Part shown: piece by piece, positions 12,438 through 28,181 of the stretch
Numbering within the stretch: the stretch's first letter is position 1
Layout of the letters: every line of letters begins with the position of its first letter
Virus record (IMG/VR): IMGVR_UViG_3300022700_000225
Location: 1-63,760 of that record
Direction: 5' to 3' (one strand)
Source of the DNA: a virus
Lineage: Duplodnaviria > Caudoviricetes
DNA length: 63,760 bases
Position numbers and translations under genes: made by a program
The notes under the pieces: model-generated
The model's input: only the letters and a program-made list of their open reading frames with translations
What the model was told of the DNA's origin: nothing
The model's database searches: none

Positions 12438-15400
12438 CTACATCCCTGCCCGCTGCCTCAGCCTTTGCGCATACGGCCGCAGATATTCCGGCGGCTGCCG
12501 GCCCTGCATCCGGGTGGCAATCGAGTGTTTCAGGTCAATGATATATTCAAACCGGCCCCGTTCTGCCTGTTCCCGGTTCCAGTCCGCGACTTCTTTGGCA
12601 ATTTTGCGCACCTCCTTGAAATCGCCCTCATGCACGGCCTTTGCCATGCGGTCGGCAAAATTGCGCTGCTTTCTGACCTTGTAGGCCCGAAGATCCCCGA
12701 TCTTCTGAGTCATTTCCCATGACTTCTGATTTTCCACAGGCTGAAACCCGAAGGCTTTGGCTATCGCCTGGGGTGCAGTAATCCGCCTCGGTTCCACTTC
12801 TCCGGGCAGCACAATGGGCCGGCCCGTATGCGTGTAAAGCCCTTCGGAATAGGCCCGGTGGGCGCGAATCGGGTTGGCGATCACCGGCGGCAAAATGCTT
12901 TCAAGCGCCCGCAGCGGGTCCCGGTTGTATGCCGCGGTCATGGTGCGCTCAATATCGACCAGCATGGAGTAAGGAATGCCGATTGCTTCGGCAAAAAGCC
13001 GGGCGCCCTGCCCGGTGGGCGACTGATCCACCCGGTATCTTGACAAAATGGGCAGCTCCATGCTCATGGAAGATCCCAGGGTGGTGCCGCCGACAGTGGG
13101 CAAACCGTATAAGGCCATGTCCCGCACCCAGTCCATGTCCTCATCATCGGGCAGCAGCTTGTCCACGGTCTTTTCCTCCCAGTCATCGCCTGTGAGCTGC
13201 CGCATCATCGCCATGAAGGTTTTATACAAGGGGAAGGACGTCAGGCCGCCGAACGCCACCACAGCCGCGAGCGAGCGCATAAGCGCCCTCTGGCCGGAGC
13301 CGCCCTGCTTCCACTGCCATTTCCACAAAGACAGCAGGTTGTGGGTGAAAAACCGGAATGTGTAACCGGTGCCGGCCACGTACCGGACAATCGGAGACTT
13401 GTCGGCCCGGACCAGCTCGGGCCGGTTGTGCCGGCCAAAGTCAAAGTTGGTGTCTGTGTTGATCTCGCTGGCAAAGGCCATTGCCTCATCGTATGAAAGC
13501 GCTTCGCCGGCCTTTTTGTTAAACTTCTTCAAGGTCTTCGGGTTGGTGATCTTGCCTTCCCGGGCAATGTTAAAGGCGGCCAGCCCCACGGTGGTCCGGT
13601 TGAACCGTTCCGATATGGCCATGGGAATGCCCAGCAGCTTGACAAACCGGTCCCAGCCGGAAGCTACCGGGTCCCTTGCAATCTGGCCGGAGACTTCTTC
13701 TGTAAACTGGGCGCCGGACAACCCCTTTTCATAAAAGTCATGCAAAAACCGCCGCTGCTCCATGGTCAGGGTCTTTTTGCCGTTTAGCGCGTCTGTCAGC
13801 ATCTTGCCGGTGGTGCCCAGATAGCGGGAATTGGCCCGCTTTGTTTCCATGGACAGCCGGGACGTGCCGGCCACAATCACCTGAGTGAGGTTCAGCACCG
13901 GGGTTTTAATCGATGCTCCCAGGTACTTGGCAAAAAACAGGGACTTCATCCAGGCAATACGCTTGTCGTGCTGATCTGAATTGCGCAGCATGTCAGACAC
14001 ATAGTTTTTGGACGCCTTGTAGAGCTCCGGGTCTTTTTTTGCATCCAGGGTGGCCAGTATTTTGGAATAATCCCGGCTGGCCTCCATCTTGGTCATCCAC
14101 CCGTTGCTGCCGGTCAGATACCGGTAGAGCACCTTCTGGATGTCCCGTTTTTCATGGCCCGGGATGTCGTGCTGGCGGATGGTGTGCGCCCCGAATCCCC
14201 GCATCTTCAGCACGTCTGCCACCTTTTCGGGCAAAATCTGCTCAAATGCGTGGGCAAGATCCGGACCGGCCTGCTGGGCCGCGGTTTTCAGGATCTGTGA
14301 AATGGCATCTGTGGGAATCGGGGTGTCATAGATGGACTCCTCGGGCAGGTTTTCGTTTCTGCCCACCTTGACTTTCATGTTTTTGAACTCGGGGTATCTG
14401 GCAAAGATTTTTTCCAGCTCCTTTGCCGCTGCCCTGCGCTGGCTCAAATTGAGCCTGGCATCAAAATGGGACCGGAACACCACCTCGCCTTCCTGATCCC
14501 GGATCTGGATATAGTGATTGCCGTAGCGCACATGCGGAAAATAGTTTTTCTTGTACCGGGCATCCTTTCTGAATTGATCAATCTGGTTGCGGTCCACTTC
14601 CGATGAGCGGGCCAGCAGGGCGTCAATCTGGGTCCATTTGTTGTCCAGCACCCGGCGGACCTGCACCACTTCTTTGGCAACCTCTTTGGAAACGCCCAGA
14701 TTTTTTACGATCCAGTTTTCCAGCGCCGGATACGCCTCTTCATTGACCTGCAGGCCCTTTTCCGCATCCACTATAAGGCTGTCTGGCACGCCCTTGATGT
14801 CCTGGCCGTCAATGGTCCAGATCACGTCCCGCACCGCCTCCAGGTTTTCGCCCCGCAGCTTCCAGAAGGAATCCAGGGTCACAACGTCTTTGGTGTTTAG
14901 ATCGTTTCGGGTTTCAATGCGCTTTTTGGTGCGGTCATAGAGCTTGCCGAAGGCTTCCGGATAATACTTTGCCATCCATTGCGGCAGCATGAGGGCCCGC
15001 TGCGTGACCCGCATTTTCTTTTCGTCCTTGCCGAAAGTGACATTGGGCGGCAGGTCTCCGGTGCGCAGGAAGTGGGCAAATTCTCTGTCAGGATTTTTGG
15101 GCTGGTATTGTTCGTCACCCCAGGCGGCCCGGCGGATTTGCGCGCCGGAATGTCTTGTCTTTTTGACCGGAGCGCCGTAATCGGAAGCCTTGAGGCCGGG
15201 CGGGAGGTCGCCGGCGCGGGCAAAGCGGGCGCCTTCTGATCCTGCCGGAGGGGTTGTCCCGTCGGGAAGGGAGGTTAAGTCTCGATTTTTGGCCGTGTCG
15301 GTTTTTTCAGAGGGCTGCCGGGAGGCTACTTGCTCTTGAACAGATCCTTGAACTTGCCCCGCGCCTGGTTCGATACCTGCCTGCCGTGCTGCCGCAAGGA

Positions 15401-18400
15401 TTCGATCTCGGAGGTCGTCAAGCGAAGGCTGTCTTGCAATGTAGTGGGCTTCTTTTTGGGTGAGGGCTTCGAGCTTTCCGGCGATGTTGTGTTCCCGGAG
15501 GAATTTTTCTGTTTGCTGTCTGCCATGTTTATCCTCGATCTTCTTGATGATTTGCGTATCTGGCTTGATTTTACTGCCGTATATGCCGGATGTCAATGCG
15601 GAAACAGCCGCCACCTCTCCGCCGTTGTTTTCGATGAAGTGGCGCAGTTCAGACATAGTGCCGCCCTGCCCCAGGGCGTCGTCTATAAGAATGTACTTGC
15701 GTCCGGCCTGGACCTTGCCGTCAAATTCGGGGCGGGCAACAAGCCGGAGCGGGGAGTCTTTTTCTGTGCGGGCTGCCCGGTTGGACTGAACGATGTCAGT
15801 GTTTACCTCGAATCCGGCATCCCTGTAAGCCTCCGCAAGAACACGCGGAATGGCATTTTTTCCGGCCGCCTCTTCGGCATGAGGGGCCACCACAACCGCA
15901 TCCGGATACTGTTTTTTCAGGTTCAAAATCTTTTCCGGCTTGACCAGATCCCGGACAAGGCTGATTGCAGCCCTGGCGTCTCCGGCCTTGGCCTTCTTGT
16001 ATTCCGGATGCCCTGTCAACTTGCTCATGGAGGTGTGCAGCGTGGCATTTGCAAAATCCTTGGGCCAGGACTTAACTGACGTGCGGGCAAAGCGGGTGTC
16101 GGGGCTGGCCGGGTCAAACGTGCCCTGGTTTCCTGTGGCGGATTTGATTTGTTCGGGCTCAAAGGCAACATAGACCCCCGCATGTTGCGCCTCAAAATCT
16201 TTGACTCCATCAAAGTCTGTTACAAGCCCGCCCACGCGCTCATCGTATAAGTCCACATAGGCAGAATCAAACTCATTGGTTCGGAGGCTGCGGTTTTTGT
16301 CTATCTTTACCTGGCCTGTTTTTTTGAGCGTCTCTTTTTGTTTGGCAGTAAGCCGGGTCGGCTCTTCGTGAACATACCCGTCAAAGCCGCTTTCTTTTAA
16401 CCGGGCAGTGATTTCCCGGGTCGTATATTCTTTACCTTCTTTTGATAATTGATTTATGGCTTTAGCAACATCTTTCTTGCTGGCAGGATTTTTAATGGAA
16501 AGATAAAATGCCCGGGTTTCACTGTCGGGCGCATTGGGCCGGCCCCATGGTCGCCGCCCGTGCATATCTGCATCTTCCCGATTCCCGGAGAACCAAAAGC
16601 CCATTACTGGGGCATCAGGATCATGGGAATTTATTTTGCTCTTATCAAATTCAGAGAATCCCGGCGTCGGGCTCCCATGATAGACGACCAAGGGCCCGCC
16701 GTTTTCATCCACCACCTTGGAGGCCTGATCATGCTCTGCCTTGACTTTTCCCAGCCATTGCTTTAATTTTTTATCCATAGGGCCGGATTGAGCATTGATC
16801 CCCGGCGCCCTAATGCCGGCAAGATGATGCTCCGATTCGGCCCTTGTTATTTCCACGCTGGAAACAAAAGCATTGTGCAGCTCGTTTCCTTCCGGCTTGC
16901 TGGCCTCTCTGACGGTAAAGCGGACCCAGTAATCTCCCGTATCCGGATCATTGACCTTTGACAGATAATTGTGATGGGCAATGATGTTGTTGTGTTTTGC
17001 CGGATCTCGTTCGCTTTCCGAATAAATGGGCTCTGCTTTTTCGAGCAGGGGCTTAAACTGCGGTATGATTCTCAGCATCAAGTCCCGCTGACGATGGCCG
17101 AGGATCTTTTTAAAAGCATTGGTTACAAAAAGAATCCTTCTGCCGTCCCGCTGATTGACCGCACTGCCGGCTGCTTTGTATGCCTTGCGCGCAGATTGCT
17201 TGTCCACTGCTGCCGGTTCAATGGACATGGCCGGCATTTCAATCACCCGTCTGTATTGCTCCGCCGATTCCCAATCGCCGAACCATTTCTTGAAATATTT
17301 GGACTGCACGCCCTTTTCGGCCCATTCCCTCCGGGCCTCCGCCCGCTGTGCAGCCTCCGCCCCGGCCTCATCGGATCTGGCAAACCGCACCCCGGCCTGA
17401 TCGTCATAATAAACGGTTGTCAGCACCTCTTCGGGGTTCTGGCCCATTTTCATCAGGCCTTCCCTTTTGAGCATCGCCTCCAGGGTCTTCCATGGTGGCT
17501 CCGCCTTGCGCTTTTCCGGCGACAGCTCCAGGCGCTTTTGGGTCAGCCGGGCCTCGGCCTCGCCGGCCAGGGTAAGGTAGGCATAGCCCCGGGCCACGTA
17601 ATCGGCTTCGCGCTTCAGCTTCACAGCTTCCGCATTGACCTTTGATCGTTGATCCCGGTCCTTGATCTCCATGGCGGTGCGGACTTTGCTATTGGCTTTC
17701 CGGTACAGCTGTTCCGCCCTCGGCACGCCCCGGGCCGGTTCCACGGATGACATGCTGCCGCCCCTGGCAAAGCCCTCCCGCCGCTGAACCGCGTGCTGGA
17801 GTTCGTGCAAAAGGTGGCTTTTCAGTTTCGATGCCGGCACCTGGGAGCCAACCAAAATGCTCTGGTTGTCATGGCTGTATCCGGCCCCGGCTTCGTTGAC
17901 GGGGTGGACCCCGACGCGGATATCCATTAAAGACGGATATGCTTTAAAAAGCGCCGGCGCCTCGATCAATTCATTGAGTTTGAAATATCCCTTTTCCCCG
18001 GCCACCTGCTCTATCACGGCCTGGAAAGGCATGCCCTTCTGGTTGATCCGCCGGTTTAGCCGGACCTGTCCGCTGTCGATTTCAAAGCTCCACTGGCCGG
18101 GCACGATCTCCCACCAGCCGGTTGTCTTCCAAATCTTCTCCCGGCTTGCCGTGCCTTTTTCCTTTGCCAGCTTGGCTTTTTCCAGCATGCCGGTATCTGC
18201 GGTCGCGGCCTTTTTGCCAAGGAACAGAAAACGGGGATCTGCCTTTAAGCCCTGGCCCACAAAGCCGGTTTCGCCCTTTTCAATCACTTGATCCGCCCGG
18301 GAAATGACCATGCGCAGATCCGCCCGGGTCAGCCCTGTGTTGGGAAACAGCTTTCGCACCCATGCGGCAACCCTGGAAACAAACCGGTCAAGCAGGGTCC

Positions 18401-21400
18401 CGGTCTCGCCGGCCCGGATCTTTTCCACCAAAACCTCTTCTGCGGCCATGGCCCGGTTTTCGGCAGTCCCGGAAATGTTGTGCTTTTTTAAAAAAGCGTC
18501 CACGTCGCGCTTGTAGCGGGTGGCCACCTTGCCGAAAAACGCCTGCTTGCCCTTGCGCCCCCCAAGGATCTGATCCAGGGCCAGGTGCCGGCCTTCATGC
18601 CGCAGCAGCCATTCCACATGGGCTGCGGCCATGGCATCCGGGGCGGCAATGTTGTCTGCCACAAAATAGAGCCTGTCTTTGTGGAAAACGCCCAGCCATT
18701 CACCCGACATGCCTTCGGCCTCGATGGTGTCCTGCAGGGTCTTCGGAAGCTCGGATTCATGGTTTAAGATCTCGATCTTGCCCTTGAGCCCGGAGTAAAG
18801 CTCGCCTGTGGCTGCGTCCATTATCTTGTGCAAAACGCTTTTGGGCACGGCCGCACCTTCGGGCACCCGGCGGGCGGTTCTGGCAAAGCGGGTTGAGCGC
18901 ATCTGCTCCCACCGGGAAAAATCCTTGGCCTCTGTATCGTCTGTTTTTTCTTCCTCGGCGCGAAGCTCCCCCAAGACTTCTTCGTGTCTTTTCCAGGCCT
19001 CTTCTAACCGGCCCTCCTGCTCAAACGGGGCATCCACCCGTTCCTTGAGTTTCGGCAGCTCTTTTTTGTTTTGCTCCAGCTCTTTGGCAAGGTCGTCTTT
19101 TAGGGATTCGGCATTGTTTTCGACATAATTCACCTTGTTGTTCATGCGGGAGAAAAACCCGGTGGCTGAAAATTTGTCCGCAAACTTGCCGGTGCCGTCA
19201 ATGACATAGCTTGGCGGGAACAGATTGCCTTTCCGGGTATAGACGTCATATGCCTTGAATTGCGGCTCCAAAACGACCGCGCTAAAATGCCGGGACCGGG
19301 AGGCGTCAAACTCAACGCCCCGAAATGTGACGGTAAATTCCTTTCCGGTTTTTGCTGTCTGCTTCAAGGCTTTTTCAACAGCATTGCCGGCCGCGTCTTT
19401 TGCCCTTTTTAATGCGGACTCGTTGGCTTCGCGGGCAGCCTTGACCTCTTTTTTGTTCTCCCTGGTCTCTTCGGACACCGGAACCAGGTTTTCGGCCCTG
19501 TAGGTCTTGCCGTCCACCGTGATTTCCCAGCCTTCCGGGCTGTCATCGCGGGGATTGTTTTTGACGGTCTCCAGGTCCGCGTTGATATCAGCGGTATAGT
19601 CATCATATCTTTCCTGGAAAGTCTCAATCGCTTTGATCCTGCCCTGTGCGGAAAATCGTTGAGACCTGTGGTTGCTGCGCAGGGACTCCAGTTTCCCGAT
19701 CTCCTGGCGCAGCTGGATCTCTTCCAGGATCAGTGGGTTTCCGGATGCAGCAGCCTTCATGTCGGCCGCATTGGCCGCCTCGCCCACAGAGTCTTCTATG
19801 GACTCGCCCCACTGGTGGTTGCCGGCCCGGAGTTGCTCAATGCTTTTGGCCTTTCGCTCAATGATCTGCCAGCGCCGGGTGTCAAGCGTTTCCTTGGTGG
19901 AATACCGGTGAATGCCGACTTCAAAAATCCCTTCGCCCTTTTCGAGCTTTTCCTTGAAAAACTCGTTTCCCTGCCGGATGATCCTCCCTTCCCGCTGCTC
20001 CAGGTCAGAAGGACGCCACGGGGCGTCTAAGTGGTGAAGGGCCACAAGTTTGTTTTGCACATTCATTCCAGCGCCCATCTTGGAGGTCGAGCCAATCAGC
20101 ACCCGGACCCGGCCGGCCCGGACCTTGCCGAACAAATCCGCTTTCTGCTTGTCGGTATTGGCGTCATGGATAAAGGCAATCTGGTGCTCCGGGACTCCTT
20201 TCTGAATCAGCTTGGCCTTGATGTCGTCATATACGGAAAAGTTTGAATCTGCGGCAATCAGTTCTCCAAAAGAGTATTTGCCGAGCTTTTCGGTTAGCCG
20301 GTTGTATTTGTTTTCCAGTTCCACCGCATTCTCCGGGCTTGCCGACTCCAGAGCCTGCTCTGCCTCCCGGATCTGTCCGCGCAGTTCATTGATCTCCGCT
20401 TTATGCTTTGACGCAGCCTTTTTAGGAACTGACAAATCACAGAAAACAAGCTGTGCGCCCTTCCTGTCATTCCATTGCTGGTAGGTGTCATAGATGTTTT
20501 CAACTGCCAGGTTGACCTTGGAGCCCGGAAAATCAGGCAAATTCGGGTCAATCAGCCGGATATCAAGCGCGGCCTTCATGGCCTCGCCCGTGGCTTTCAG
20601 CGGGTTGTCTTCTCTGGGGTCTTTCGGCATGTTGTCCATGCGGTGAACAATCCAGTCCATAAAGCTCTTCTGGTCCTCGGATCGTTCGGCCACAACGTTT
20701 TCCGGCTTGCCGCCCTTAACGTTGGGGACAGGCCACACATTGCCCTGGCTTTCGGCCCACTCCCGCAAATCTTTTGTGGAAATAACGTCTGCAAAGTCCT
20801 TGTAGATGGACATCATACCGGGCACGTTTTGGAAGGTCAGCTGCGATTGGAGTTTATACCGGGTGCCCGTAGCGTCTACCTGCCAGTCATTTTGAACGCT
20901 GGCAAAAAGATTTGCCCACTGGTCAAAGTGAGCTGCTCCCATCTCCTTTAGCTGGCCATAGGACATATACCGCATCATGGTATACATCTCGGCTATTGAA
21001 TTGGAAACCGGCGTCCCGGTCAGGAAAAATACGCCCCGGCCGTTATTCGCCTCCTGCAGGTATTGGGTTTTGACAAACAGATCAAAGGCTTTCTTTGACC
21101 CGGCCGGGTCTCCAAGGCCGGCCACGCGCGTCATTTTGGTGGCATAAAACAGATTTTTAAACTCATGGGCTTCATCCACAAACAGGGCGTCCACGCCAAG
21201 CTCTGAGAAATCCACGACATCGTCTTTGGTTTTGTCGGACAGGGCTTCGAGCTTTTCCTTTATTCGGTCCCGGGCTTTTTCCATCTGCTTGACCGAAGGC
21301 GTTTTTTTGCCCTCTTCCTGGGAAAGCTCAAGGATGGCCTCTTCGTATTGGCTGATTTGCTCCTGGTAAAACTTCGCCTGATGCTCTGCCGGCATCTTGA

Positions 21401-24400
21401 TAAAGCCAAAGGAGGAATGCGCCATAACCACCGCATCCCATTCTCCCGTGGCAATGCGACCCAAAAACTCCTGACGGTTTTTCTTGGCAAAATCCTTTTT
21501 GCCGATCACAAGGACATTGGCCCCGGGATATAGCGTCTGGAAATCCGCCGCCCATTGATCCACCAGATGGTTGGGGACTGTATACATGGGTTTTTTTGCA
21601 AGCCCCATCCGCTTCATTTCCATGCCGGCCGCGATGGCTGCAAAGGTCTTGCCGGAGCCCACAACATGGTCCAGAAGGCCCTTGCCTTTCTGGATCAACC
21701 GCCATGCCACGTTTTTCTGGTGATCCCGCAGCTGATTGTCCCGGCTCTGGCCGGCGTTGATAATGCCCATGCCGGGAAAGATCATGTGGGAGCCGTCAAA
21801 AGTTCCTTCAATTGTGGTGTTGACTTTGTCATTAAACTCTTTGGCCGCAATCTCGCGGCGGTCCATATCTTCCAGGACCCAGTCCTGAAAAGCCTTGTTC
21901 ATCCGGTCAGCCGCGTCTTTGGCAATATCGGTTTCTTTTTTGTTGAGATAGGTCTTGCCGTCATCGTCTTTGTCCCGGACAACAATTTCCCGGCCTTCCA
22001 GGTTTCTTTGAAACAGCTTCTGTGCTGACATCCGCCGGGTTGAAAACTCTGTCTCGCCGGTGGGCCGGCCAAGGGCTACATGCCATTGGTCAACGCCTTC
22101 TGCATATTTGATTGTGGCCGGCGTTTTCAGCACTTCTTCGGCAAATTGCTCGTAAATGCTTGTCGGCATCCAGGGGGTGCCGATCTTGAAAAATATTTTA
22201 TCCGGAGGGACATCTTCGGGGATAACCTTTTCCAGGGCCTTGATATTTTCGATAAAAGCCGGATCGTCCTGGGCCGCCTCTCTTGCCTCGGCCAGCTTCT
22301 TTTTGACATTGCCGGACAAATAGGTGTCCGCAGTTTCCCATGTCTCTGACGCCGGATCTTTGAAAACAAGGCCGCTCAAGTCTTTTGCGGCCTGGGCCGC
22401 AGAAGCGTCGTAAAGGTCCGCAATGCGGTCCATGCTGACCGCCCCGTCTTCGCGCAAAACAACGGCAAGGGCTTCTTTTGCGTCCTTGGCCTTTTTTACC
22501 GCCCGGTAGGGTTCTCTTGTCCGGACAGAAAAAATAGACGCTTTCTCCGCCTTTGGAGGCCGGGCCTTCTCCCCTGTCTTTTTTGCCTGGGCTTTGGATA
22601 TTCCCGGGTCAAAGTCTTTTTCCAGAGACCGCAGCAGCGGGAAGTCCGTTGGATCGTCCTTCATCAGGTCCTTGTTGGCCGGCTGATTCAGATATCCATG
22701 ATTTTTGACAAAGGCGTCATAGGACTGGTTTAATGCCTTGCGGTAATCTTGCATGCGCGGGTCATCGGCAATCTCGGCCCGGATCAGCCGCCGCACCGCG
22801 TCTCGTATTTTCATAACGCCTTTAAACCGCTCAAGCCGCTTGCCTTCCAGGGGCTTGCCGGCATGCAAAACCGGTTGAAAAACCTGCCGCCCCTCCGAGT
22901 CCGGCAGCCGGCGCACGGCCTGCCCGTTATCGTCAAGCGTATATCCGTAGGGCTTTGCAAAGCCCGGGTCTGACACAACTATTTCCGGGCGCTGCACTTC
23001 TTCAAAGGTCTGCCCCTCCTGGTAAACATTTTCAGGCAGGCGGGAAAGAGCCTTGTCCAGATCGGCCTGGGTATATGTCCCGCTTAACCCGGCAACCGCA
23101 TCATAAACGCCGTCCACCACTTTGCCGGGAAACAGCTTGTTCGGGGCCAGTCGGCCCAGCATCATTTCCGGATGATTTGCAAAATACTCATTGATCCGAT
23201 AAACAACTCCGTCTTTTTCGCTGGCGACATCCTGGAGATTTTGCCACTTGTTACCTTCAATCTTTTCGCCTTCTGCCCGTTTGCGCATAAAAACCAGATC
23301 GGTTGTAACATCTGTCCCAGCCGTGGATCGAAACGCAGTGGAGGGCAGGCGGACCGTGCCGAGCAGTTCGGCGTGCTTGTTGAGCCATTGCCGCTGTGCG
23401 CCGCCGGCTTTGTCCATCATGTGAGAAGACACCACCATGGCCAGAAGGCCGTTTGGCCGCAGGGCCTTAATGCTTTTGGCAAAGAAATAATTGTGGATGG
23501 AAAAGTTTTTCAGGTCTTTGTGTTTGGGGTCATGCAGCTTTTTAGAGCCAAACGGAGGATTGCCGACAACCGCGTCCTTGGAGTTCGGAACAATGTCAAA
23601 ATCCTGAAACGCCGTGTGGGCAAGGTTTTGATTGGGGTACAGCAGCTTGGCAATTTTTGAAGTAAGAGGATCAATCTCAGCGCCGGCAACATGGCTTTTG
23701 CTGCGCATATCGGCCGGCATCAGGCCGACAAAATGCCCGATACCGTAAGCGGGCTCAAGGATTTTGCCGCCCTTAAACCCCATCCGCTGCAGGGTGCTGT
23801 ATATACCCTGAATAATGGGCTCGTTGGTGTAGTGAGCATCCTGAGTAGTTGACCGGGCGGCCTCGTACTCTTGCTGGGTGAGCAGGTCTTTTAACTCTTT
23901 TGCCTCTGCCTCCCAGCCTTTGGCGACAGAACCGTCCGGACGGTAAAAAGCCTGGGGCAGCCCGCCCCAGCCCACATATTTGACCAGCTTGGCCTGCTCT
24001 GCAGGAGTGGCGTAACGGTCTCCGATTTCTTTAACCAGGCGGAGCGCCTCCAGGTTGTCTTTAAACTTCTGCTTGGGCCCGCCTTCCCCGATCCTGTCTT
24101 CGGCGGTGATTTTATAATCTACAGGGCGTAAAGGTCCCTGACCACCACTTCTTCCGCTTCGTAGTCCCTCATCCCGCCGTCCATCAGCTCTTCTTTCTGC
24201 TCCATCGCCTGCTCGCCCTTCATCTTGCAAAACGCCTTGAGATCCCCCGCTTTCCTGAGCCTCTTGTAAAGCTCCGGATCTCTCTCCGGAAGATTGTTCA
24301 TCAGCTGATGCGCGTATCTGTTCATCTGATACCTCCGTTTCTGTGGTTGCAGCCTTCCTTTTATCATTAATAATATCAGATATTTCGCTGGTGTCAAGTT

Positions 24401-27400
24401 CTTTTATGTTGGCCGGATCTGTCATGCCCTTGGCGTCAAAGCCGGGGTAATGGCGCACCGCCTCATACCAGCTTCGCAGATACGATTTTACCGCCTCGCC
24501 CAGATCGGCCATCATGGCCTTTGAATAGGCGGTAAAAGACCTGGCGCCGGCCTCGATATGATAGCCGGCCAGCTGAATGCCGGCCTGCACGATTTCCGGG
24601 TCCAGCCCTGTGCTGACCTGCCCCAGTTTTTTCCGGAGCAACTCCCGGGCCTTGTCTGCGGCATCCCTGGTAAAAACCGTGTTGGTTTCGCCATAGCCGG
24701 ACTCTTGGGCTCCACTTGTTTCAGCAGGAGACGCCTGCTCCTGTGCAGACGCCTCCGCGCTCTGTGTCGAAACATCAGAGGGGGTTTGCGTTTGCCCAGC
24801 CTCACCCTCGCCCAGATGGGGGGTCAGACGGTCTTTTTTGTCCTGGCTTAAATAGTCCCAAAGCGTTTTGGAAAGCTGTCCGGCTTCGGCATCAGAATAT
24901 CCTGCAGTTTTGGCCGCCTGATACCGGCCTTCACCGGTCAACTCGTTGCGCCACGCCTCTTCAGGGATTTTTGCGCTCTGCCCCTCGGTTTCGGCTGCCC
25001 GGCCAGCCCGGTCAACTTCTTCGACAAGCTGCTCGCGGGTTTTGTCCCTGGTGTCGATCCCTTCCTGTTTTGCCACCTGCCGGGCTTTCATTAGGTGGGC
25101 TCGCCAGCCGTCAGGACGGGCGGGTGCCCTTTCTTCGGCTTTGGCTGAAGCCGCCCCCTTTTCAGGGACGGCTTCGGATACCGTTTCAGCGCGTGGCTGA
25201 TCGGCTGATTTGAATCGTTCCACTTCCTCATTGGTCAGGTATTGTGTACGGCCTTTTTCGTATAGCTGTTTCGGAGACTTGACCCCGGCCTCCGGTCCGG
25301 CTCCGGGCACTACATCGACGGGGGCCTGAATCCGGACTCCGTTTTCAACAATAAAACGATTCCCTGCCTTGTCCTGGTAAACGGTCTTGCCTTCGGAATT
25401 TCTACCAACTTTGCCGAATTTTTTTCCGCCGGGTGCCGTTTCAGACAATGCCTGACCTTTGCCGCCTCCAGAATCGTCCAATTTTGCGCTTCTGGCGGCT
25501 TTGGCCTGCAAACCCGCATCTGGCGATGGTTTATAGTCGCCTTCCTCGGCTAAAATCTCATCCATGTCCTGCTGACGGTCCCGGGCAGCCTTTCTTATCC
25601 GGTCCTGGGCCGGGGTGATCCCCCGGGCCTCGCGCGGGCCTTCCAGTGAAGATTCATCCGGCAGGTCTGACAGGTCGGCGTCAAATTCGTCAACTCTGCG
25701 CCAGCCCCACTGATCGTTTCCAAGGTCCACGGGCTCGACGGCTTCCCCGGCCTTCTGCTTGTCGTGCACCAGCTTGTCAATGCCCTTTTTGGTATAGGGC
25801 TTGCCGGACTTCATCACGGCCACGGTGCCGGGCAACGGCTCGCCGGCTGACAGCTCATGGCCGGTATCAATCGTACCGGTTTCGGCCCGGGCCTCTGCGT
25901 CGGCTTCGGGCGTCCGGCCTTCTGGTTCTGCCTGGGACCGGGTTGCCGGGGCGGATTCTTTGCGTGTTGCCGGCACATCTACCGCCTGGGCAATATAAGG
26001 CTGCGGCAGGTTTCTGCCATACAGCTCATGGAGGTGATACAGGGCGTAGGGGTCGCGCTTTTTGGCGTCATTGACATGATCCCGCAGCTCGTTGACCTGC
26101 TGCCAGCCCGGGTCATTGTTGGGTTTGCCCCGCATTTTCCGGCGCATGGATTTCAGGGCGGTCTCGGCGTTAAAGATCACCTTGCGTTCGTCTTTTTTCA
26201 GGTCCGGGGCCTGGCCCTCGGCTTCCGTCAGCTGCGCGTCGGCCCGCTCCTGGTCGGCAATGTCTTTGTCCAGCCCGTCCGGAAACCGGTCCTGCTCTGC
26301 CGGAATGTCGCCCGCGGCCTGGGCCTCGGCCCTTTGCTGCCGGGCCGCCTCCTGCCGGGCAGTGAAAATTTTGGCGTCAATGCCGTCAATCTCATCCTGG
26401 ATCTTTTTCTTTGCCGCCTTGCCCCGGGCCTTCTGCTTTCTGGCAACCGCGTTGTTGCGCCGGGCCTGGAGGTTTTCCACGCGCTTTTCATATCGCGGGG
26501 CCTGCCGGGCGAGGGCTTCTGCCTGCGGCCGGGTCTCCTGCGCCGGCCCGGCTTGCGGTGCGGGCTGCTCTGCGGCTGCCGGCTCTCCCATCTGATCCAT
26601 GGCCTGCTGGTTTAGCTTTTGCCTTGCCAGAACCGGGTCATTAATTTGCTCGGTCTGCCCGGCTGCGGCCCGGGCCTGCTCGGCAACCCCCCGGTTTTCC
26701 GCCTCACCCATCAGGCGCACCATCAGACGGTTGGCCCGCTGGGCCGTGTTCTGATCCGTGCTTTGAAAAGACTGTGCGGTGGCCCCGATGGTCTCCACCA
26801 GTTCATCGTCAGACATTTCCCGGACCACCCGGTCGGTCCAGTCCCGCTCGGCCTGTCCGGCCGCCTGTGCTGTCTGCTGCGCAAGGTCTTTTTCAATGGC
26901 CTGGATCTCTTCTTCTGTGGCCCCGGCCTTCTTTGCCTCATCAATGACCTTTTTGCGCTTCTTGTCCAGGGCCTCCACGGTGCTGCGGCCAAACACGCCG
27001 CCGGCCATGCCGCCTGCCCCGGCTCCGCCGATAATGGCCTCAACAATGCCTTCGGTGAGGTTCCGGGTTTTGTCATAGCCTATCTTGGCAATCGTGTTTT
27101 GCCAGAGGTTTTGAGACGCTTCCTGCATCCCCTCTTCTGCCCCGCCGTTGGCAATGCGCTTGATTGCGCCTTCGGCCGCTTCCTTGCCGGCGCCGCCAGC
27201 CCCGGCCCGTTTCAAGATCCGGGAAATGGGTATGTATTCCAGCAGGGCGGTTCCCATGGTGGAGGCCAGGCCGACACCGGAAGCATACGCCTTTCCCTTT
27301 CCGGCCTCCCGCGCCTCTTCATACTGTGGTGCGCCTTCCAAAAGTCCAAGGGCAGTCGCGCCGCCCGCAGCCCCAATGCCTTCAGCAGAAAGCCCCTTTG

Positions 27401-28181
27401 CACCTGTACGAAGCAGCTGGGCAGCACGGGGAATGCCGGCCCGGGCCGCGGCCCCTGCGGCTCCTGCACTGACAACCATGGCTGCCATCAAAGAGGGCAT
27501 GGCCTCACCAACAATGCCGGCTGCCCGCTTAAAAGACGGGTTTTCCATAAACGTGCCGGAAAAGGTGAACTCATCCGGCGCCGCCCAACCTTCCTGTGCG
27601 GCCTTGTTCCAGTATTTGGACGCGGTTTTGCCCCAGTCAGAAACAGTGTCAATGTTGGTCACATCCCCGGCCCACCGGGTCACGGAGCCCACGCCGGAGG
27701 CAAGGCCCTCTGTTCCGCGCACCAGGCCCTTGCCGATGGTCTCCAGGTATCCGTGCTGGTTTTCCTCCATGTACCGGTTGCCCAGCCATTCAATATCGTC
27801 AATGGTCAAAGGTTTTTCAGATTTGGGCAGACCCCTTTGCACGTTTTCCCGGTACTTGCGGATGCCGGCGGCCAGAACTTTCTGGTCCCGGTCCGGGAAC
27901 TTTTTGGTCAGAGAGTCAAACAGTTTGTCCTGATTGCCGCCCTTGCGTGGCTCCTGCAGATGTTCCAGGGCGGAGCGTTCCGGCGCCGGGGTCTGGTTGA
28001 GCTTTTGCCGGGCAGGGGCCGGGTCGGCCGAAGCTGTTTCCGGCTGCCTGGGCTGCAGGATGTCATATGGTCTTTGCCCGGCCCCGGGTCTCGGGGAAAG
28101 CACGTCTTTTGCCGGCCGTGCAGGGTTGCCGTTATTTCGCAGGCGATTTAACCGCTCTTCCAAATTGGCATTGCTTTGCAT
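12438..28181 (-). CDS. Giant polyvalent virion/ejection protein (5247 aa): DarB-like N6-MTase + SNF2 helicase, metallopeptidase, LPD23, LPD3-like, ADP-ribosyltransferase, PRTase, PLxRFG and LPD38-like domains
   Basis: ILEPAYGIGHF/NPPF (about 23550-23760); HVVGSGKT, DEAH, QREGRIIRQGN (about 19970-21670); HEGRH (about 18590); HELQH..EGFARGG (about 17800); VVYHGS..GFWFS..QIKSATGNQGTF (about 16100-16720); ILIDDALGQGGT (about 15670); YFPHVRYG (about 14530). Confidence 0.92.
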   Translation of the reverse strand: MQSNANLEERLNRLRNNGNPARPAKDVLSPRPGAGQRPYDILQPRQPETASADPAPARQKLNQTPAPERSALEHLQEPRKGGNQDKLFDSLTKKFPDRDQKVLAAGIRKYRENVQRGLPKSEKPLTIDDIEWLGNRYMEENQHGYLETIGKGLVRGTEGLASGVGSVTRWAGDVTNIDTVSDWGKTASKYWNKAAQEGWAAPDEFTFSGTFMENPSFKRAAGIVGEAMPSLMAAMVVSAGAAGAAARAGIPRAAQLLRTGAKGLSAEGIGAAGGATALGLLEGAPQYEEAREAGKGKAYASGVGLASTMGTALLEYIPISRILKRAGAGGAGKEAAEGAIKRIANGGAEEGMQEASQNLWQNTIAKIGYDKTRNLTEGIVEAIIGGAGAGGMAGGVFGRSTVEALDKKRKKVIDEAKKAGATEEEIQAIEKDLAQQTAQAAGQAERDWTDRVVREMSDDELVETIGATAQSFQSTDQNTAQRANRLMVRLMGEAENRGVAEQARAAAGQTEQINDPVLARQKLNQQAMDQMGEPAAAEQPAPQAGPAQETRPQAEALARQAPRYEKRVENLQARRNNAVARKQKARGKAAKKKIQDEIDGIDAKIFTARQEAARQQRAEAQAAGDIPAEQDRFPDGLDKDIADQERADAQLTEAEGQAPDLKKDERKVIFNAETALKSMRRKMRGKPNNDPGWQQVNELRDHVNDAKKRDPYALYHLHELYGRNLPQPYIAQAVDVPATRKESAPATRSQAEPEGRTPEADAEARAETGTIDTGHELSAGEPLPGTVAVMKSGKPYTKKGIDKLVHDKQKAGEAVEPVDLGNDQWGWRRVDEFDADLSDLPDESSLEGPREARGITPAQDRIRKAARDRQQDMDEILAEEGDYKPSPDAGLQAKAARSAKLDDSGGGKGQALSETAPGGKKFGKVGRNSEGKTVYQDKAGNRFIVENGVRIQAPVDVVPGAGPEAGVKSPKQLYEKGRTQYLTNEEVERFKSADQPRAETVSEAVPEKGAASAKAEERAPARPDGWRAHLMKARQVAKQEGIDTRDKTREQLVEEVDRAGRAAETEGQSAKIPEEAWRNELTGEGRYQAAKTAGYSDAEAGQLSKTLWDYLSQDKKDRLTPHLGEGEAGQTQTPSDVSTQSAEASAQEQASPAETSGAQESGYGETNTVFTRDAADKARELLRKKLGQVSTGLDPEIVQAGIQLAGYHIEAGARSFTAYSKAMMADLGEAVKSYLRSWYEAVRHYPGFDAKGMTDPANIKELDTSEISDIINDKRKAATTETEVSDEQIRASADEQSSGERSGALQEAQESGGSQGVLQDEGRAGDGAERRADGRRDEGLRSGRSGGQGPLRPVDYKITAEDRIGEGGPKQKFKDNLEALRLVKEIGDRYATPAEQAKLVKYVGWGGLPQAFYRPDGSVAKGWEAEAKELKDLLTQQEYEAARSTTQDAHYTNEPIIQGIYSTLQRMGFKGGKILEPAYGIGHFVGLMPADMRSKSHVAGAEIDPLTSKIAKLLYPNQNLAHTAFQDFDIVPNSKDAVVGNPPFGSKKLHDPKHKDLKNFSIHNYFFAKSIKALRPNGLLAMVVSSHMMDKAGGAQRQWLNKHAELLGTVRLPSTAFRSTAGTDVTTDLVFMRKRAEGEKIEGNKWQNLQDVASEKDGVVYRINEYFANHPEMMLGRLAPNKLFPGKVVDGVYDAVAGLSGTYTQADLDKALSRLPENVYQEGQTFEEVQRPEIVVSDPGFAKPYGYTLDDNGQAVRRLPDSEGRQVFQPVLHAGKPLEGKRLERFKGVMKIRDAVRRLIRAEIADDPRMQDYRKALNQSYDAFVKNHGYLNQPANKDLMKDDPTDFPLLRSLEKDFDPGISKAQAKKTGEKARPPKAEKASIFSVRTREPYRAVKKAKDAKEALAVVLREDGAVSMDRIADLYDASAAQAAKDLSGLVFKDPASETWETADTYLSGNVKKKLAEAREAAQDDPAFIENIKALEKVIPEDVPPDKIFFKIGTPWMPTSIYEQFAEEVLKTPATIKYAEGVDQWHVALGRPTGETEFSTRRMSAQKLFQRNLEGREIVVRDKDDDGKTYLNKKETDIAKDAADRMNKAFQDWVLEDMDRREIAAKEFNDKVNTTIEGTFDGSHMIFPGMGIINAGQSRDNQLRDHQKNVAWRLIQKGKGLLDHVVGSGKTFAAIAAGMEMKRMGLAKKPMYTVPNHLVDQWAADFQTLYPGANVLVIGKKDFAKKNRQEFLGRIATGEWDAVVMAHSSFGFIKMPAEHQAKFYQEQISQYEEAILELSQEEGKKTPSVKQMEKARDRIKEKLEALSDKTKDDVVDFSELGVDALFVDEAHEFKNLFYATKMTRVAGLGDPAGSKKAFDLFVKTQYLQEANNGRGVFFLTGTPVSNSIAEMYTMMRYMSYGQLKEMGAAHFDQWANLFASVQNDWQVDATGTRYKLQSQLTFQNVPGMMSIYKDFADVISTKDLREWAESQGNVWPVPNVKGGKPENVVAERSEDQKSFMDWIVHRMDNMPKDPREDNPLKATGEAMKAALDIRLIDPNLPDFPGSKVNLAVENIYDTYQQWNDRKGAQLVFCDLSVPKKAASKHKAEINELRGQIREAEQALESASPENAVELENKYNRLTEKLGKYSFGELIAADSNFSVYDDIKAKLIQKGVPEHQIAFIHDANTDKQKADLFGKVRAGRVRVLIGSTSKMGAGMNVQNKLVALHHLDAPWRPSDLEQREGRIIRQGNEFFKEKLEKGEGIFEVGIHRYSTKETLDTRRWQIIERKAKSIEQLRAGNHQWGESIEDSVGEAANAADMKAAASGNPLILEEIQLRQEIGKLESLRSNHRSQRFSAQGRIKAIETFQERYDDYTADINADLETVKNNPRDDSPEGWEITVDGKTYRAENLVPVSEETRENKKEVKAAREANESALKRAKDAAGNAVEKALKQTAKTGKEFTVTFRGVEFDASRSRHFSAVVLEPQFKAYDVYTRKGNLFPPSYVIDGTGKFADKFSATGFFSRMNNKVNYVENNAESLKDDLAKELEQNKKELPKLKERVDAPFEQEGRLEEAWKRHEEVLGELRAEEEKTDDTEAKDFSRWEQMRSTRFARTARRVPEGAAVPKSVLHKIMDAATGELYSGLKGKIEILNHESELPKTLQDTIEAEGMSGEWLGVFHKDRLYFVADNIAAPDAMAAAHVEWLLRHEGRHLALDQILGGRKGKQAFFGKVATRYKRDVDAFLKKHNISGTAENRAMAAEEVLVEKIRAGETGTLLDRFVSRVAAWVRKLFPNTGLTRADLRMVISRADQVIEKGETGFVGQGLKADPRFLFLGKKAATADTGMLEKAKLAKEKGTASREKIWKTTGWWEIVPGQWSFEIDSGQVRLNRRINQKGMPFQAVIEQVAGEKGYFKLNELIEAPALFKAYPSLMDIRVGVHPVNEAGAGYSHDNQSILVGSQVPASKLKSHLLHELQHAVQRREGFARGGSMSSVEPARGVPRAEQLYRKANSKVRTAMEIKDRDQRSKVNAEAVKLKREADYVARGYAYLTLAGEAEARLTQKRLELSPEKRKAEPPWKTLEAMLKREGLMKMGQNPEEVLTTVYYDDQAGVRFARSDEAGAEAAQRAEARREWAEKGVQSKYFKKWFGDWESAEQYRRVIEMPAMSIEPAAVDKQSARKAYKAAGSAVNQRDGRRILFVTNAFKKILGHRQRDLMLRIIPQFKPLLEKAEPIYSESERDPAKHNNIIAHHNYLSKVNDPDTGDYWVRFTVREASKPEGNELHNAFVSSVEITRAESEHHLAGIRAPGINAQSGPMDKKLKQWLGKVKAEHDQASKVVDENGGPLVVYHGSPTPGFSEFDKSKINSHDPDAPVMGFWFSGNREDADMHGRRPWGRPNAPDSETRAFYLSIKNPASKKDVAKAINQLSKEGKEYTTREITARLKESGFDGYVHEEPTRLTAKQKETLKKTGQVKIDKNRSLRTNEFDSAYVDLYDERVGGLVTDFDGVKDFEAQHAGVYVAFEPEQIKSATGNQGTFDPASPDTRFARTSVKSWPKDFANATLHTSMSKLTGHPEYKKAKAGDARAAISLVRDLVKPEKILNLKKQYPDAVVVAPHAEEAAGKNAIPRVLAEAYRDAGFEVNTDIVQSNRAARTEKDSPLRLVARPEFDGKVQAGRKYILIDDALGQGGTMSELRHFIENNGGEVAAVSALTSGIYGSKIKPDTQIIKKIEDKHGRQQTEKFLREHNIAGKLEALTQKEAHYIARQPSLDDLRDRILAAARQAGIEPGAGQVQGSVQEQVASRQPSEKTDTAKNRDLTSLPDGTTPPAGSEGARFARAGDLPPGLKASDYGAPVKKTRHSGAQIRRAAWGDEQYQPKNPDREFAHFLRTGDLPPNVTFGKDEKKMRVTQRALMLPQWMAKYYPEAFGKLYDRTKKRIETRNDLNTKDVVTLDSFWKLRGENLEAVRDVIWTIDGQDIKGVPDSLIVDAEKGLQVNEEAYPALENWIVKNLGVSKEVAKEVVQVRRVLDNKWTQIDALLARSSEVDRNQIDQFRKDARYKKNYFPHVRYGNHYIQIRDQEGEVVFRSHFDARLNLSQRRAAAKELEKIFARYPEFKNMKVKVGRNENLPEESIYDTPIPTDAISQILKTAAQQAGPDLAHAFEQILPEKVADVLKMRGFGAHTIRQHDIPGHEKRDIQKVLYRYLTGSNGWMTKMEASRDYSKILATLDAKKDPELYKASKNYVSDMLRNSDQHDKRIAWMKSLFFAKYLGASIKTPVLNLTQVIVAGTSRLSMETKRANSRYLGTTGKMLTDALNGKKTLTMEQRRFLHDFYEKGLSGAQFTEEVSGQIARDPVASGWDRFVKLLGIPMAISERFNRTTVGLAAFNIAREGKITNPKTLKKFNKKAGEALSYDEAMAFASEINTDTNFDFGRHNRPELVRADKSPIVRYVAGTGYTFRFFTHNLLSLWKWQWKQGGSGQRALMRSLAAVVAFGGLTSFPLYKTFMAMMRQLTGDDWEEKTVDKLLPDDEDMDWVRDMALYGLPTVGGTTLGSSMSMELPILSRYRVDQSPTGQGARLFAEAIGIPYSMLVDIERTMTAAYNRDPLRALESILPPVIANPIRAHRAYSEGLYTHTGRPIVLPGEVEPRRITAPQAIAKAFGFQPVENQKSWEMTQKIGDLRAYKVRKQRNFADRMAKAVHEGDFKEVRKIAKEVADWNREQAERGRFEYIIDLKHSIATRMQGRQPPEYLRPYAQRLRQRAGM
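15326..15526 (-). CDS. Small overprinted protein (66 aa) nested in the +1 frame at the end of the PRTase module
   Basis: GAGG-ATAAAC-ATG; amphipathic C-terminal helix LTTSEIESLRQHGRQ. Confidence 0.45.
   Translation of the reverse strand: MADSKQKNSSGNTTSPESSKPSPKKKPTTLQDSLRLTTSEIESLRQHGRQVSNQARGKFKDLFKSK
24119..24325 (-). CDS. Small overprinted TnpV-like helical protein (68 aa) nested in the +1 frame just before the DarB MTase module
   Basis: GGAGGT-ATCAG-ATG; PELYKRLRKAGDL...AEEVVVRDLY; the host frame is a low-complexity linker here. Confidence 0.65.
   Translation of the reverse strand: MNRYAHQLMNNLPERDPELYKRLRKAGDLKAFCKMKGEQAMEQKEELMDGGMRDYEAEEVVVRDLYAL

Follow-up and report, generated by a model that had tools for sequence, protein, structure and literature searches.

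Genes that lie out of frame inside a longer gene are a known kind. Rz1 of phage lambda, for example, occupies the +1 frame of Rz. The genes of two-component spanins occur in embedded, overlapped and separated architectures, and their products are partners (PMC6139136, in excerpt). In Bacillus subtilis, comS encodes a small regulatory peptide that binds another protein, and it is read in a distinct frame of srfAB, a giant multi-modular open reading frame (ORF) (PMC12915044, in excerpt). Here we describe what is a widespread new case, found in a virus of the Caudoviricetes (Duplodnaviria), IMG/VR record IMGVR_UViG_3300022700_000225. This DNA was analysed over its whole length of 63,760 nucleotides (nt), which we call the window, and it is a complete virus record with direct terminal repeats. 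Within the gene for a polyvalent protein of 5247 amino acids (aa), a second ORF of 66 codons is embedded in the +1 frame, in the 3' part of a module that resembles KfrC, a plasmid phosphoribosyltransferase (PRTase). The reading we prefer, to which we give a probability of roughly 0.5, is that this ORF is a real embedded gene with its own start, and that its helical product may act on the PRTase module. The features on which the argument draws are as follows.

15326..15526, minus strand: embedded +1-frame gene (ATG, 66 codons plus TAG), from the list of ORFs; the sole profile match in the window
15533..15536, minus strand: GAGG Shine-Dalgarno (SD)-like site with a 6-nt spacer to the ATG, read from the sequence
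15386..15421, minus strand: conserved core of the unit, LTTSEIESLRQH (family consensus LTPSEIESLRQD), from the alignment of homologs; start of a predicted amphipathic helix that runs to the end of the ORF
15375..15422, minus strand: zone of synonymous suppression in the main frame (module positions 225-240, main-frame residues 4254-4269), from the codon alignment
15216..16094, minus strand: KfrC-like PRTase module (main-frame residues 4030-4322, bounded by RFAR motifs), from domain matches, homology and the DD motif
15216..15227, minus strand: next RFAR module-boundary motif in the main frame, read from the sequence
12438..28181, minus strand: host gene, the 5247-aa polyvalent-protein ORF with SNF2/helicase, methylase, ART-PolyVal, LPD and PRTase modules (Pfam)

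The likeness to the spanins is one of arrangement, a small gene being carried inside a larger phage gene on the same strand and in another frame (PMC6139136, in excerpt). Unlike the spanins, the +1 unit is without a lipoprotein signal, a membrane role or the context of a lysis cassette, and its host gene is a PRTase module or kfrC. Similarly, it shares with comS the nesting of a small peptide gene out of frame in a giant multi-modular ORF (PMC12915044, in excerpt), but the two have no sequence relation, the host and function of comS (competence control) are different, and the unit is spread across hundreds of mobile elements. There is also a likeness to toxin-antitoxin and effector-immunity pairs, in that a growth-inhibiting enzyme domain is tightly linked to a small ORF of which orphan copies occur elsewhere. 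However, the small ORF lies here inside the coding sequence (CDS) of the enzyme and not beside it, and neutralisation is only putative.

The host module belongs to a PRTase family of invasive elements that has been described before (PMC5512222, in excerpt). RFAR motifs at residues 4030 and 4319 flank it, its catalytic core occupies approximately 15555..16094, and helices specific to the family lie downstream of the core. The module carries a loop for binding phosphoribosyl pyrophosphate with the DD motif, which is intact in all 94 aligned sequences. It is homologous to modules of 43 other giant proteins (closest relative P0004, 73% identity) and, at 36-40% identity, to the kfrC products of 157 plasmid records, among them KfrC of IncP-1 and IncU plasmids; loop and homology together place it among the KfrC-like PRTases. 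The embedded ORF begins at the ATG at 15526 and ends with the TAG at 15328..15326; it is wholly contained in the host gene, on the same strand, and in the +1 frame relative to it (offset 12655, mod 3 = 1). In the initial annotation, made from the letters alone, this ORF and its GAGG ribosome-binding site had been picked out and said to overlap the C-terminal helices of the PRTase module, and all of this is borne out: the module's conserved C-terminal helices are formed by main-frame residues 4219-4286, and it is these that the ORF spans. It had also been said to stop just before the next RFAR. The stop does precede that motif, but at a distance of 99 nt, or 33 codons (to 15227), so that the description holds only approximately.

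The conservation of this frame in homologs is what sets the ORF apart from a random one. Homologous DNA came from 93 related loci (L002-L094; 13 from IMG/VR and 80 from metagenomes) with main-frame identities of 33-60%, to which annotated plasmid kfrC loci were added. When the homologous region is translated in the +1 frame, a recurring unit appears, (R)LTPSEIESLRQD..A......F.HL, often with a methionine at the position of the window's ATG. A regular expression for the motif was positive in 90 of 97 loci, and 95 of 100 loci matched a profile of the unit (A2) built from 60 of the +1 peptides. Among L002-L094, the profile placed it in the +1 frame in 87 and in frame 0, after the PRTase stop, in one (L069), with no unit in L008, L009, L010, L042 and L089; all four plasmid kfrC loci that were fetched carried it in the +1 frame. 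L042 is cut by the end of its contig, in L008 and L010 the +1 frame is open and the motif degenerate, and in L009 and L089 (28% and 40% G+C) the +1 frame is full of stops. Within the window the profile matches only 15326..15526 (3e-23), a score that is partly circular because the window's own peptide is one of the 60.

The frame is also open for longer than chance would allow across these divergent homologs. Stops in the +1 frame of the local main ORFs have a mean density of 0.036 per codon, whereas the stop-to-stop segment that bears the motif has a median length of 77 codons and a minimum of 54, and it takes one of the top two ranks among the +1 segments of its local main ORF in 50 of 80 loci (per-locus chance ~0.06). 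The openness persists throughout the 33-60% range of main-frame identity, including in L016-L018, which have only 34-35% G+C, and in most loci the +1 stop falls 22-33 codons past the SEIESL core. Frequent stops in homologs, named in the initial annotation as part of what would speak against its reading, are thus not found; over the motif there are 0 stops in 948 codons. Furthermore, a Leu-Thr pair of the main frame (positions 211-212; CTC ACC at residues 4240-4241 in the window) is conserved, and its Leu is written CTY in 78 of 79 sequences and CTA once; CTG, TTG and TTA, each of which would make a +1 stop, do not occur there in the 79 sequences.

Selection on two frames at once is visible in the nucleotide diversity at each codon position, which was computed from a main-frame codon alignment of 87 unique sequences in windows of 12 columns. 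Overall, main-frame diversity at positions 1, 2 and 3 is 0.50/0.41/0.66, and the third position stays at or above 0.579 in every listed window that begins at or before module position 213. At positions 225-236 the values are 0.52/0.34/0.27, and this is the sole region in which the third position is less diverse than the first. From position 225 onwards synonymous choice collapses, with CTT for 34 of 35 Leu, GAC for all 55 Asp, CTC for 29 of 30 Leu, CGA (47) or AGA (31) for 78 of 79 Arg, GAT for 49 of 50 Asp and GCT for all 27 Ala in the collapsed columns; Leu and Arg columns upstream of position 225 use five or six codons. The synonymous-site constraint that had been proposed as a check is therefore present, though limited to approximately 16 codons (positions 225-240).

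The complementary pattern is seen when the same nucleotides are read in the +1 frame, in which the motif is under purifying selection at the protein level. Its 12 codons have diversities of 0.31/0.24/0.50, the normal pattern of coding DNA. All 81 sequences share one +1 Leu, encoded by TTG (40), CTG (26), TTA (8) or CTC (7), while the main-frame residue varies (31 Leu, 21 Ala, 13 Val). Likewise, a +1 Arg is retained by AGG (28) and CGG (22), and one +1 Ser by all four TCN codons. Codons that are missing can be explained by the main frame: ATT is absent for the +1 Ile because it would create a main-frame TGA, and TCG is nearly absent at the first +1 Ser because the main-frame Arg would become Gly. 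Amino-acid diversity over the motif is lowest in the +1 frame of all six (0.41, against 0.61 in the main frame and 0.55-0.67 in the others). Coding on the opposite strand was considered and rejected, as the three antisense frames are more diverse than the +1 frame (0.55-0.67) and are interrupted by stops in this stretch. The +1 alignment by its nature favours the +1 frame, but the main-frame alignment yields the same picture. The signal is confined to the C-terminal part of the peptide; the N-terminal two thirds of the +1 ORF have diversities of 0.49/0.63/0.55, a main-frame type of pattern without dual coding. On the 3' side of the motif, the main frame shows no conservation.

How the +1 frame is reached can be judged from the DNA upstream of the motif. 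A start codon with an SD-like site lies no more than 40 codons upstream in 49 of 80 loci, compared with 19.9% of control windows of equal length taken from the same frame of the same ORF, and for ATG with an SD-like site the figures are 32 of 80 and 10.2%. Conservation of the ribosome-binding site, a further check proposed at the outset, thus holds as an enrichment. The start sites cluster at about -35/-33 (the position used in the window), -27 and -21/-19 codons from the motif, often with AGGAG, and the two closest loci for which DNA was available (L015 and L023) have GTG with AGGAG at the window's start position. The frame therefore has initiation signals of its own, although their positions vary and 31 of the 80 loci are without an SD-like site. 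Strong selection for a start at one fixed column was not seen in the homolog columns; in the GYG column, TAC is used 24 times and TAT 12. A conserved slippery site was not found either, there being no invariant run of third positions upstream of position 225, and RNAalifold returned 0 consensus pairs for 39 sequences of 105 nt. As starts with SD-like sites are enriched and neither a conserved slippery site nor a consensus structure is present, independent initiation is favoured, and going by these upstream sequences we consider it probable that initiation rather than frameshifting gives access to the +1 frame.

The product appears to belong to a small-protein family of approximately 50-70 aa that is apparently undescribed, and we are confident, though short of certain, that it is a genuine family of embedded genes. 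The consensus of 189 aligned units is ..SP..KP.TS....(R)LTPSEIESLRQDkkEA.a(Y/W)a(R/K).a(F/L)a.L, in which SP..KP.TS is a necessary consequence of the conserved ALTESEA in the main frame. TPSE reads as a helix-capping box, and the I, L, A, Y/W-A/M and F/L residues recur every 3-4 residues, a spacing that fits an amphipathic helix of about 30 residues. Such a helix should pack against a partner or against itself. Pfam, PHROGs, NCBIfam and PADLOC gave no significant or consistent match to a known family for the +1 peptide, a sequence search of the PDB with it gave nothing meaningful, and a query of the Atlas with the stored homolog P0049 returned only unnamed clusters, at scores of 0.76-0.77.

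The unit is found in several arrangements, and these parallel the embedded, overlapped and separated arrangements of the spanin genes (PMC6139136, in excerpt). The 81 unique sequences comprise 67 embedded units, 12 overlapped ones, in which the PRTase stop precedes the +1 stop by 16-103 nt, and 2 that extend past the end of their contig. L069, a metagenome contig of 1471 nt, is of the separated kind, its unit ORF following immediately after the PRTase stop in the same frame; the PRTase there ends near module position 180 with the unit ORF intact, and a sequencing error is possible. In L127 the PRTase is internally deleted and the unit ORF is again intact. It had been expected that the ORF would travel with the module when this is swapped, and it does so across many architectures, necessarily, because it is embedded in the module's 3' part. 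However, the cassette also moves separately from the catalytic domain, as can be seen from L105 (3962-4102), in which the whole C-terminal helical segment with its embedded ORF stands behind a MuF_C domain in a giant ORF without a PRTase core, and from L112/L113, whose dual-coding stretch likewise lies in giant ORFs without that core.

Plasmids carry the unit widely. The +1 peptide of an RA3-like plasmid matched 110 plasmid records, 92 of them at 80% coverage or more, and in the 40 records listed nearly every match lay beneath a CDS that bears the label phosphoribosyltransferase or kfrC. The KfrC of pFBAOT6, an IncU plasmid, is 355 residues long; its DDT is at 141-143, its N-terminus agrees with the RA3 primer, and the embedded ORF runs from about residue 207 to 260 of KfrC with GGAGG upstream. 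In the five plasmid kfrC/PRTase records examined, no overlapping CDS is annotated. Among phages, a variant unit is present in a Burkholderia phage, and in Moraxella phage Mcat8 (KR093632.1; L123:1679-1993) a +1 open frame of 105 codons overlaps the end of a 580-aa CDS that is labelled 'coat protein' and ends in a PRTase module; the GenBank annotation of Mcat8 has a hypothetical protein of 39 aa (AKI27356.1) that is the 3' part of this open frame. Free-standing units also exist, as a 55-aa CDS that is annotated behind mobC on an IncQ1 plasmid, as an unannotated ORF on a plasmid of 3.5 kb and as an 88-aa ORF on an Arenimonas chromosome. The Arenimonas genome has no KfrC-like PRTase and only a weak generic PRTase match (E 1.6e-6, positions 145-202). 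The unit occurs in 5 of 301 sampled genomes of the class to which Arenimonas belongs, and in the three further genomes that were read, it sits once on an internally deleted PRTase and twice without any PRTase.

On a wider scale, the profile matched 1370 predicted proteins among 1.84 billion representatives at E <= 1e-3, and 203 at <= 1e-10; these matches are ORF predictions, and many are these same embedded ORFs as called by gene finders. Most are 50-110 aa long, some have two or three units in tandem, and in a few, among them P0113 and P0073 (each from a single short contig), a PRTase core is followed by the unit in frame. The embedded +1 ORF of L060:2096-2428 (= P0090) has 134 aa and three tandem units while the giant ORF continues, L067 and L068 have two units each with the main-frame segment duplicated, and P0046, P0048, P0049 and P0054 are predicted small proteins with two or three tandem units, P0049 being a named hypothetical protein of Desulfonatronum lacustre on a contig of 3.76 Mb. 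In P0180, a C-terminal segment of the main-frame type and the unit are joined in one ORF of 186 aa.

A functional tie to the PRTase was suggested in the initial annotation, as an immunity protein or chaperone that neutralises the enzyme, and the idea of an antidote is plausible because the PRTase domain of KfrC has been reported to be toxic: growth is slowed by overproduced RA3 KfrC but not by its DDT-to-AAA mutant, and the fragment 1-249 could not be cloned (PMC8124265, in excerpt). Mapped on pFBAOT6, KfrC 1-249 would be without roughly the last 10-12 codons of the embedded ORF. The failure to clone it is nevertheless ambiguous, because the whole C-terminal domain is missing too. In searches that began from the unit, using a degenerate DNA pattern of the motif, a PRTase core lay directly upstream in 17 of 21 loci.

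On the reading we prefer, a real gene nested in the +1 frame would occupy the 3' part of the KfrC-like PRTase module, and ribosomes would most likely begin its translation on the giant gene's mRNA, at an SD site and start codon of its own. The functional part would be the helix of about 30 residues, (R)LTPSEIESLRQD..A......F.HL, preceded by an N-terminus rich in S, T, P and K whose composition is dictated by the overlapped main frame. The peptide may act on a partner through the amphipathic helix, and its most likely partner would be the enclosing PRTase module, the peptide being a regulator or off-switch that is made only where the genes of the element are expressed. A fuller version, which we think unlikely as it stands, would make the unit a portable peptide that switches off, or confers immunity to, an injected or transferred PRTase effector in whose own coding sequence it is written. 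The enzyme would then enter as a protein, packaged in the virion or brought in with plasmid DNA, to act early; expression of the embedded gene would follow only once the DNA of the element is transcribed, and would shut the enzyme down; and orphan copies on small plasmids and chromosomes would be immunity genes against incoming elements that bear a PRTase. Orphan copies are common for immunity genes.

Several observations weigh against the preferred reading, and some of them concern whether there is a gene at all and how it is reached. Within the host gene, 15 of 104 +1-frame ORFs are at least 66 aa long (8 of 76 when only ATG starts are counted) and an SD-like tetramer precedes 25 of 270 ATGs, so that in the window both the length and the SD-like site of the ORF are within chance; moreover, the loci are phylogenetically related, which inflates any binomial p-values. 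Together with the main-frame type of substitution in the N-terminal two thirds, this made a chance ORF, a by-product of main-frame constraint and codon bias that is never translated, plausible from the window alone. The homologs led us to reject it as extremely improbable, since main-frame third positions are least variable over the motif, +1 residues are kept by synonymous +1 codons while main-frame residues change, and the frame is open even in distant or low-G+C loci; we hold with considerable assurance that the alignments reflect a real translated gene. It would be just as improbable that the conserved stretch does not code and instead serves as a nucleic-acid element, be it a structure in the RNA or a DNA site bound by a protein. 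Such an element would account for the conservation of ~36-48 nt at the nucleotide level within a coding region, but not for variation that follows +1 codon periodicity, with synonymous +1 codons differing at first and third positions, nor for the regular placing of the stop beyond the SEIESL core in most loci, and RNAalifold found nothing to pair. The start, too, has points to its discredit: its position changes from locus to locus, an ATG upstream of the motif is lacking in 13 of 81 sequences, and at the column of the window's ATG the His/Tyr codons end in T (NAT) in 30 of 42 cases against a background of 57%, which is a mild excess. A programmed ribosomal frameshift, giving a truncated PRTase with an alternative C-terminal helix that ends the polyprotein, would dispense with a start, and P0113 and P0073 resemble a hard-wired form of such a product. 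It seems very unlikely all the same, given that third positions upstream of 225 are far more variable than the suppressed zone and show no conserved slippery site, that starts with an SD-like site are enriched about threefold, that separated and free-standing versions own their starts, and that the shift required would be +1 or -2. Frameshifts of +1 or -2 are rarer than those of -1.

The remaining difficulties lie with the PRTase. The strict co-occurrence expected of a toxin-antidote pair was not found. Units stand without a PRTase core in L105, L112/L113, L098-L100, L128 and L129 and are free-standing on the 3.5-kb and IncQ1 plasmids and on chromosomes, and L009 and L089 have the PRTase, with its DD motif intact, without the unit. 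Where the two do occur together, physical overlap forces them to, and their co-occurrence is therefore weak evidence of a shared function. We regard a function tied to the PRTase as somewhat less than an even prospect, and that the product is an antidote to the enzyme as a tentative analytical proposal, weakened by the units without any PRTase. The gene could instead be real and embedded while its product is unrelated to the PRTase. That product would be a small helical protein that functions autonomously in mobile elements, for instance by binding some factor of the host or of the element during establishment, and the gene would simply reside in a poorly constrained stretch behind the PRTase. 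This is a credible alternative, if one we consider doubtful. It would accommodate the units without a PRTase core (L105, L112/L113), the free-standing units of small plasmids and chromosomes, the Arenimonas genome with its weak generic match, the tandem-unit small proteins annotated in bacterial genomes (P0049 of D. lacustre) and the lack of main-frame conservation downstream of the motif. Set against it are the 17 of 21 units that the unit-first search found directly behind a PRTase core, the existence of in-frame fusions of PRTase and unit, and the precedent of embedded phage pairs such as Rz/Rz1, which encode partners (PMC6139136, in excerpt). Orphan units are compatible with either an independent function or orphan immunity.

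Of the papers that searches on KfrC, polyvalent PRTases and overlapping genes brought up, none describes the +1 ORF as far as title and abstract show. A word search of the main text of PMC5512222 and of PMC8124265 gave no mention of an overlapping ORF or of a frameshift, and the passages of PMC7414963, in excerpt, that speak of 'overlap' do not concern kfrC. The family is unannotated in kfrC of IncP-1 and IncU plasmids and in the polyvalent PRTase modules of phages because gene callers discard nested ORFs, and it has been overlooked although plasmids such as RA3 have been genetically dissected. As every deletion or truncation of kfrC made so far also hits the hidden ORF (KfrC1-249 is an example), some published phenotypes may need to be read again. 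The locus is a clean and widely replicated case of dual coding in DNA elements, and if its product does control the PRTase, it would show that an effector can have its antidote written within its own reading frame.

Other features of the giant gene may be recorded here. It contains 14 other +1-frame ORFs of at least 66 aa, among them a 108-aa ORF with a TTG start (14897..15223, minus strand), which begins right after the RFAR downstream of the embedded gene, and a 117-aa ORF with an ATG at 27076. A 249-aa antisense ORF (15330..16079, plus strand) covers the whole PRTase module and is probably a shadow ORF. The giant protein has four RFAR motifs (at 18890, 17387, 16094 and 15227, minus strand, main frame), each at a module boundary, and homologous PRTase modules start and end with a related K/R/Y-F/M-S-R motif (KFSR, YSR, RFSR, ...SFSR). 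Polyvalent proteins may be processed or docked at this RFAR-type boundary motif.

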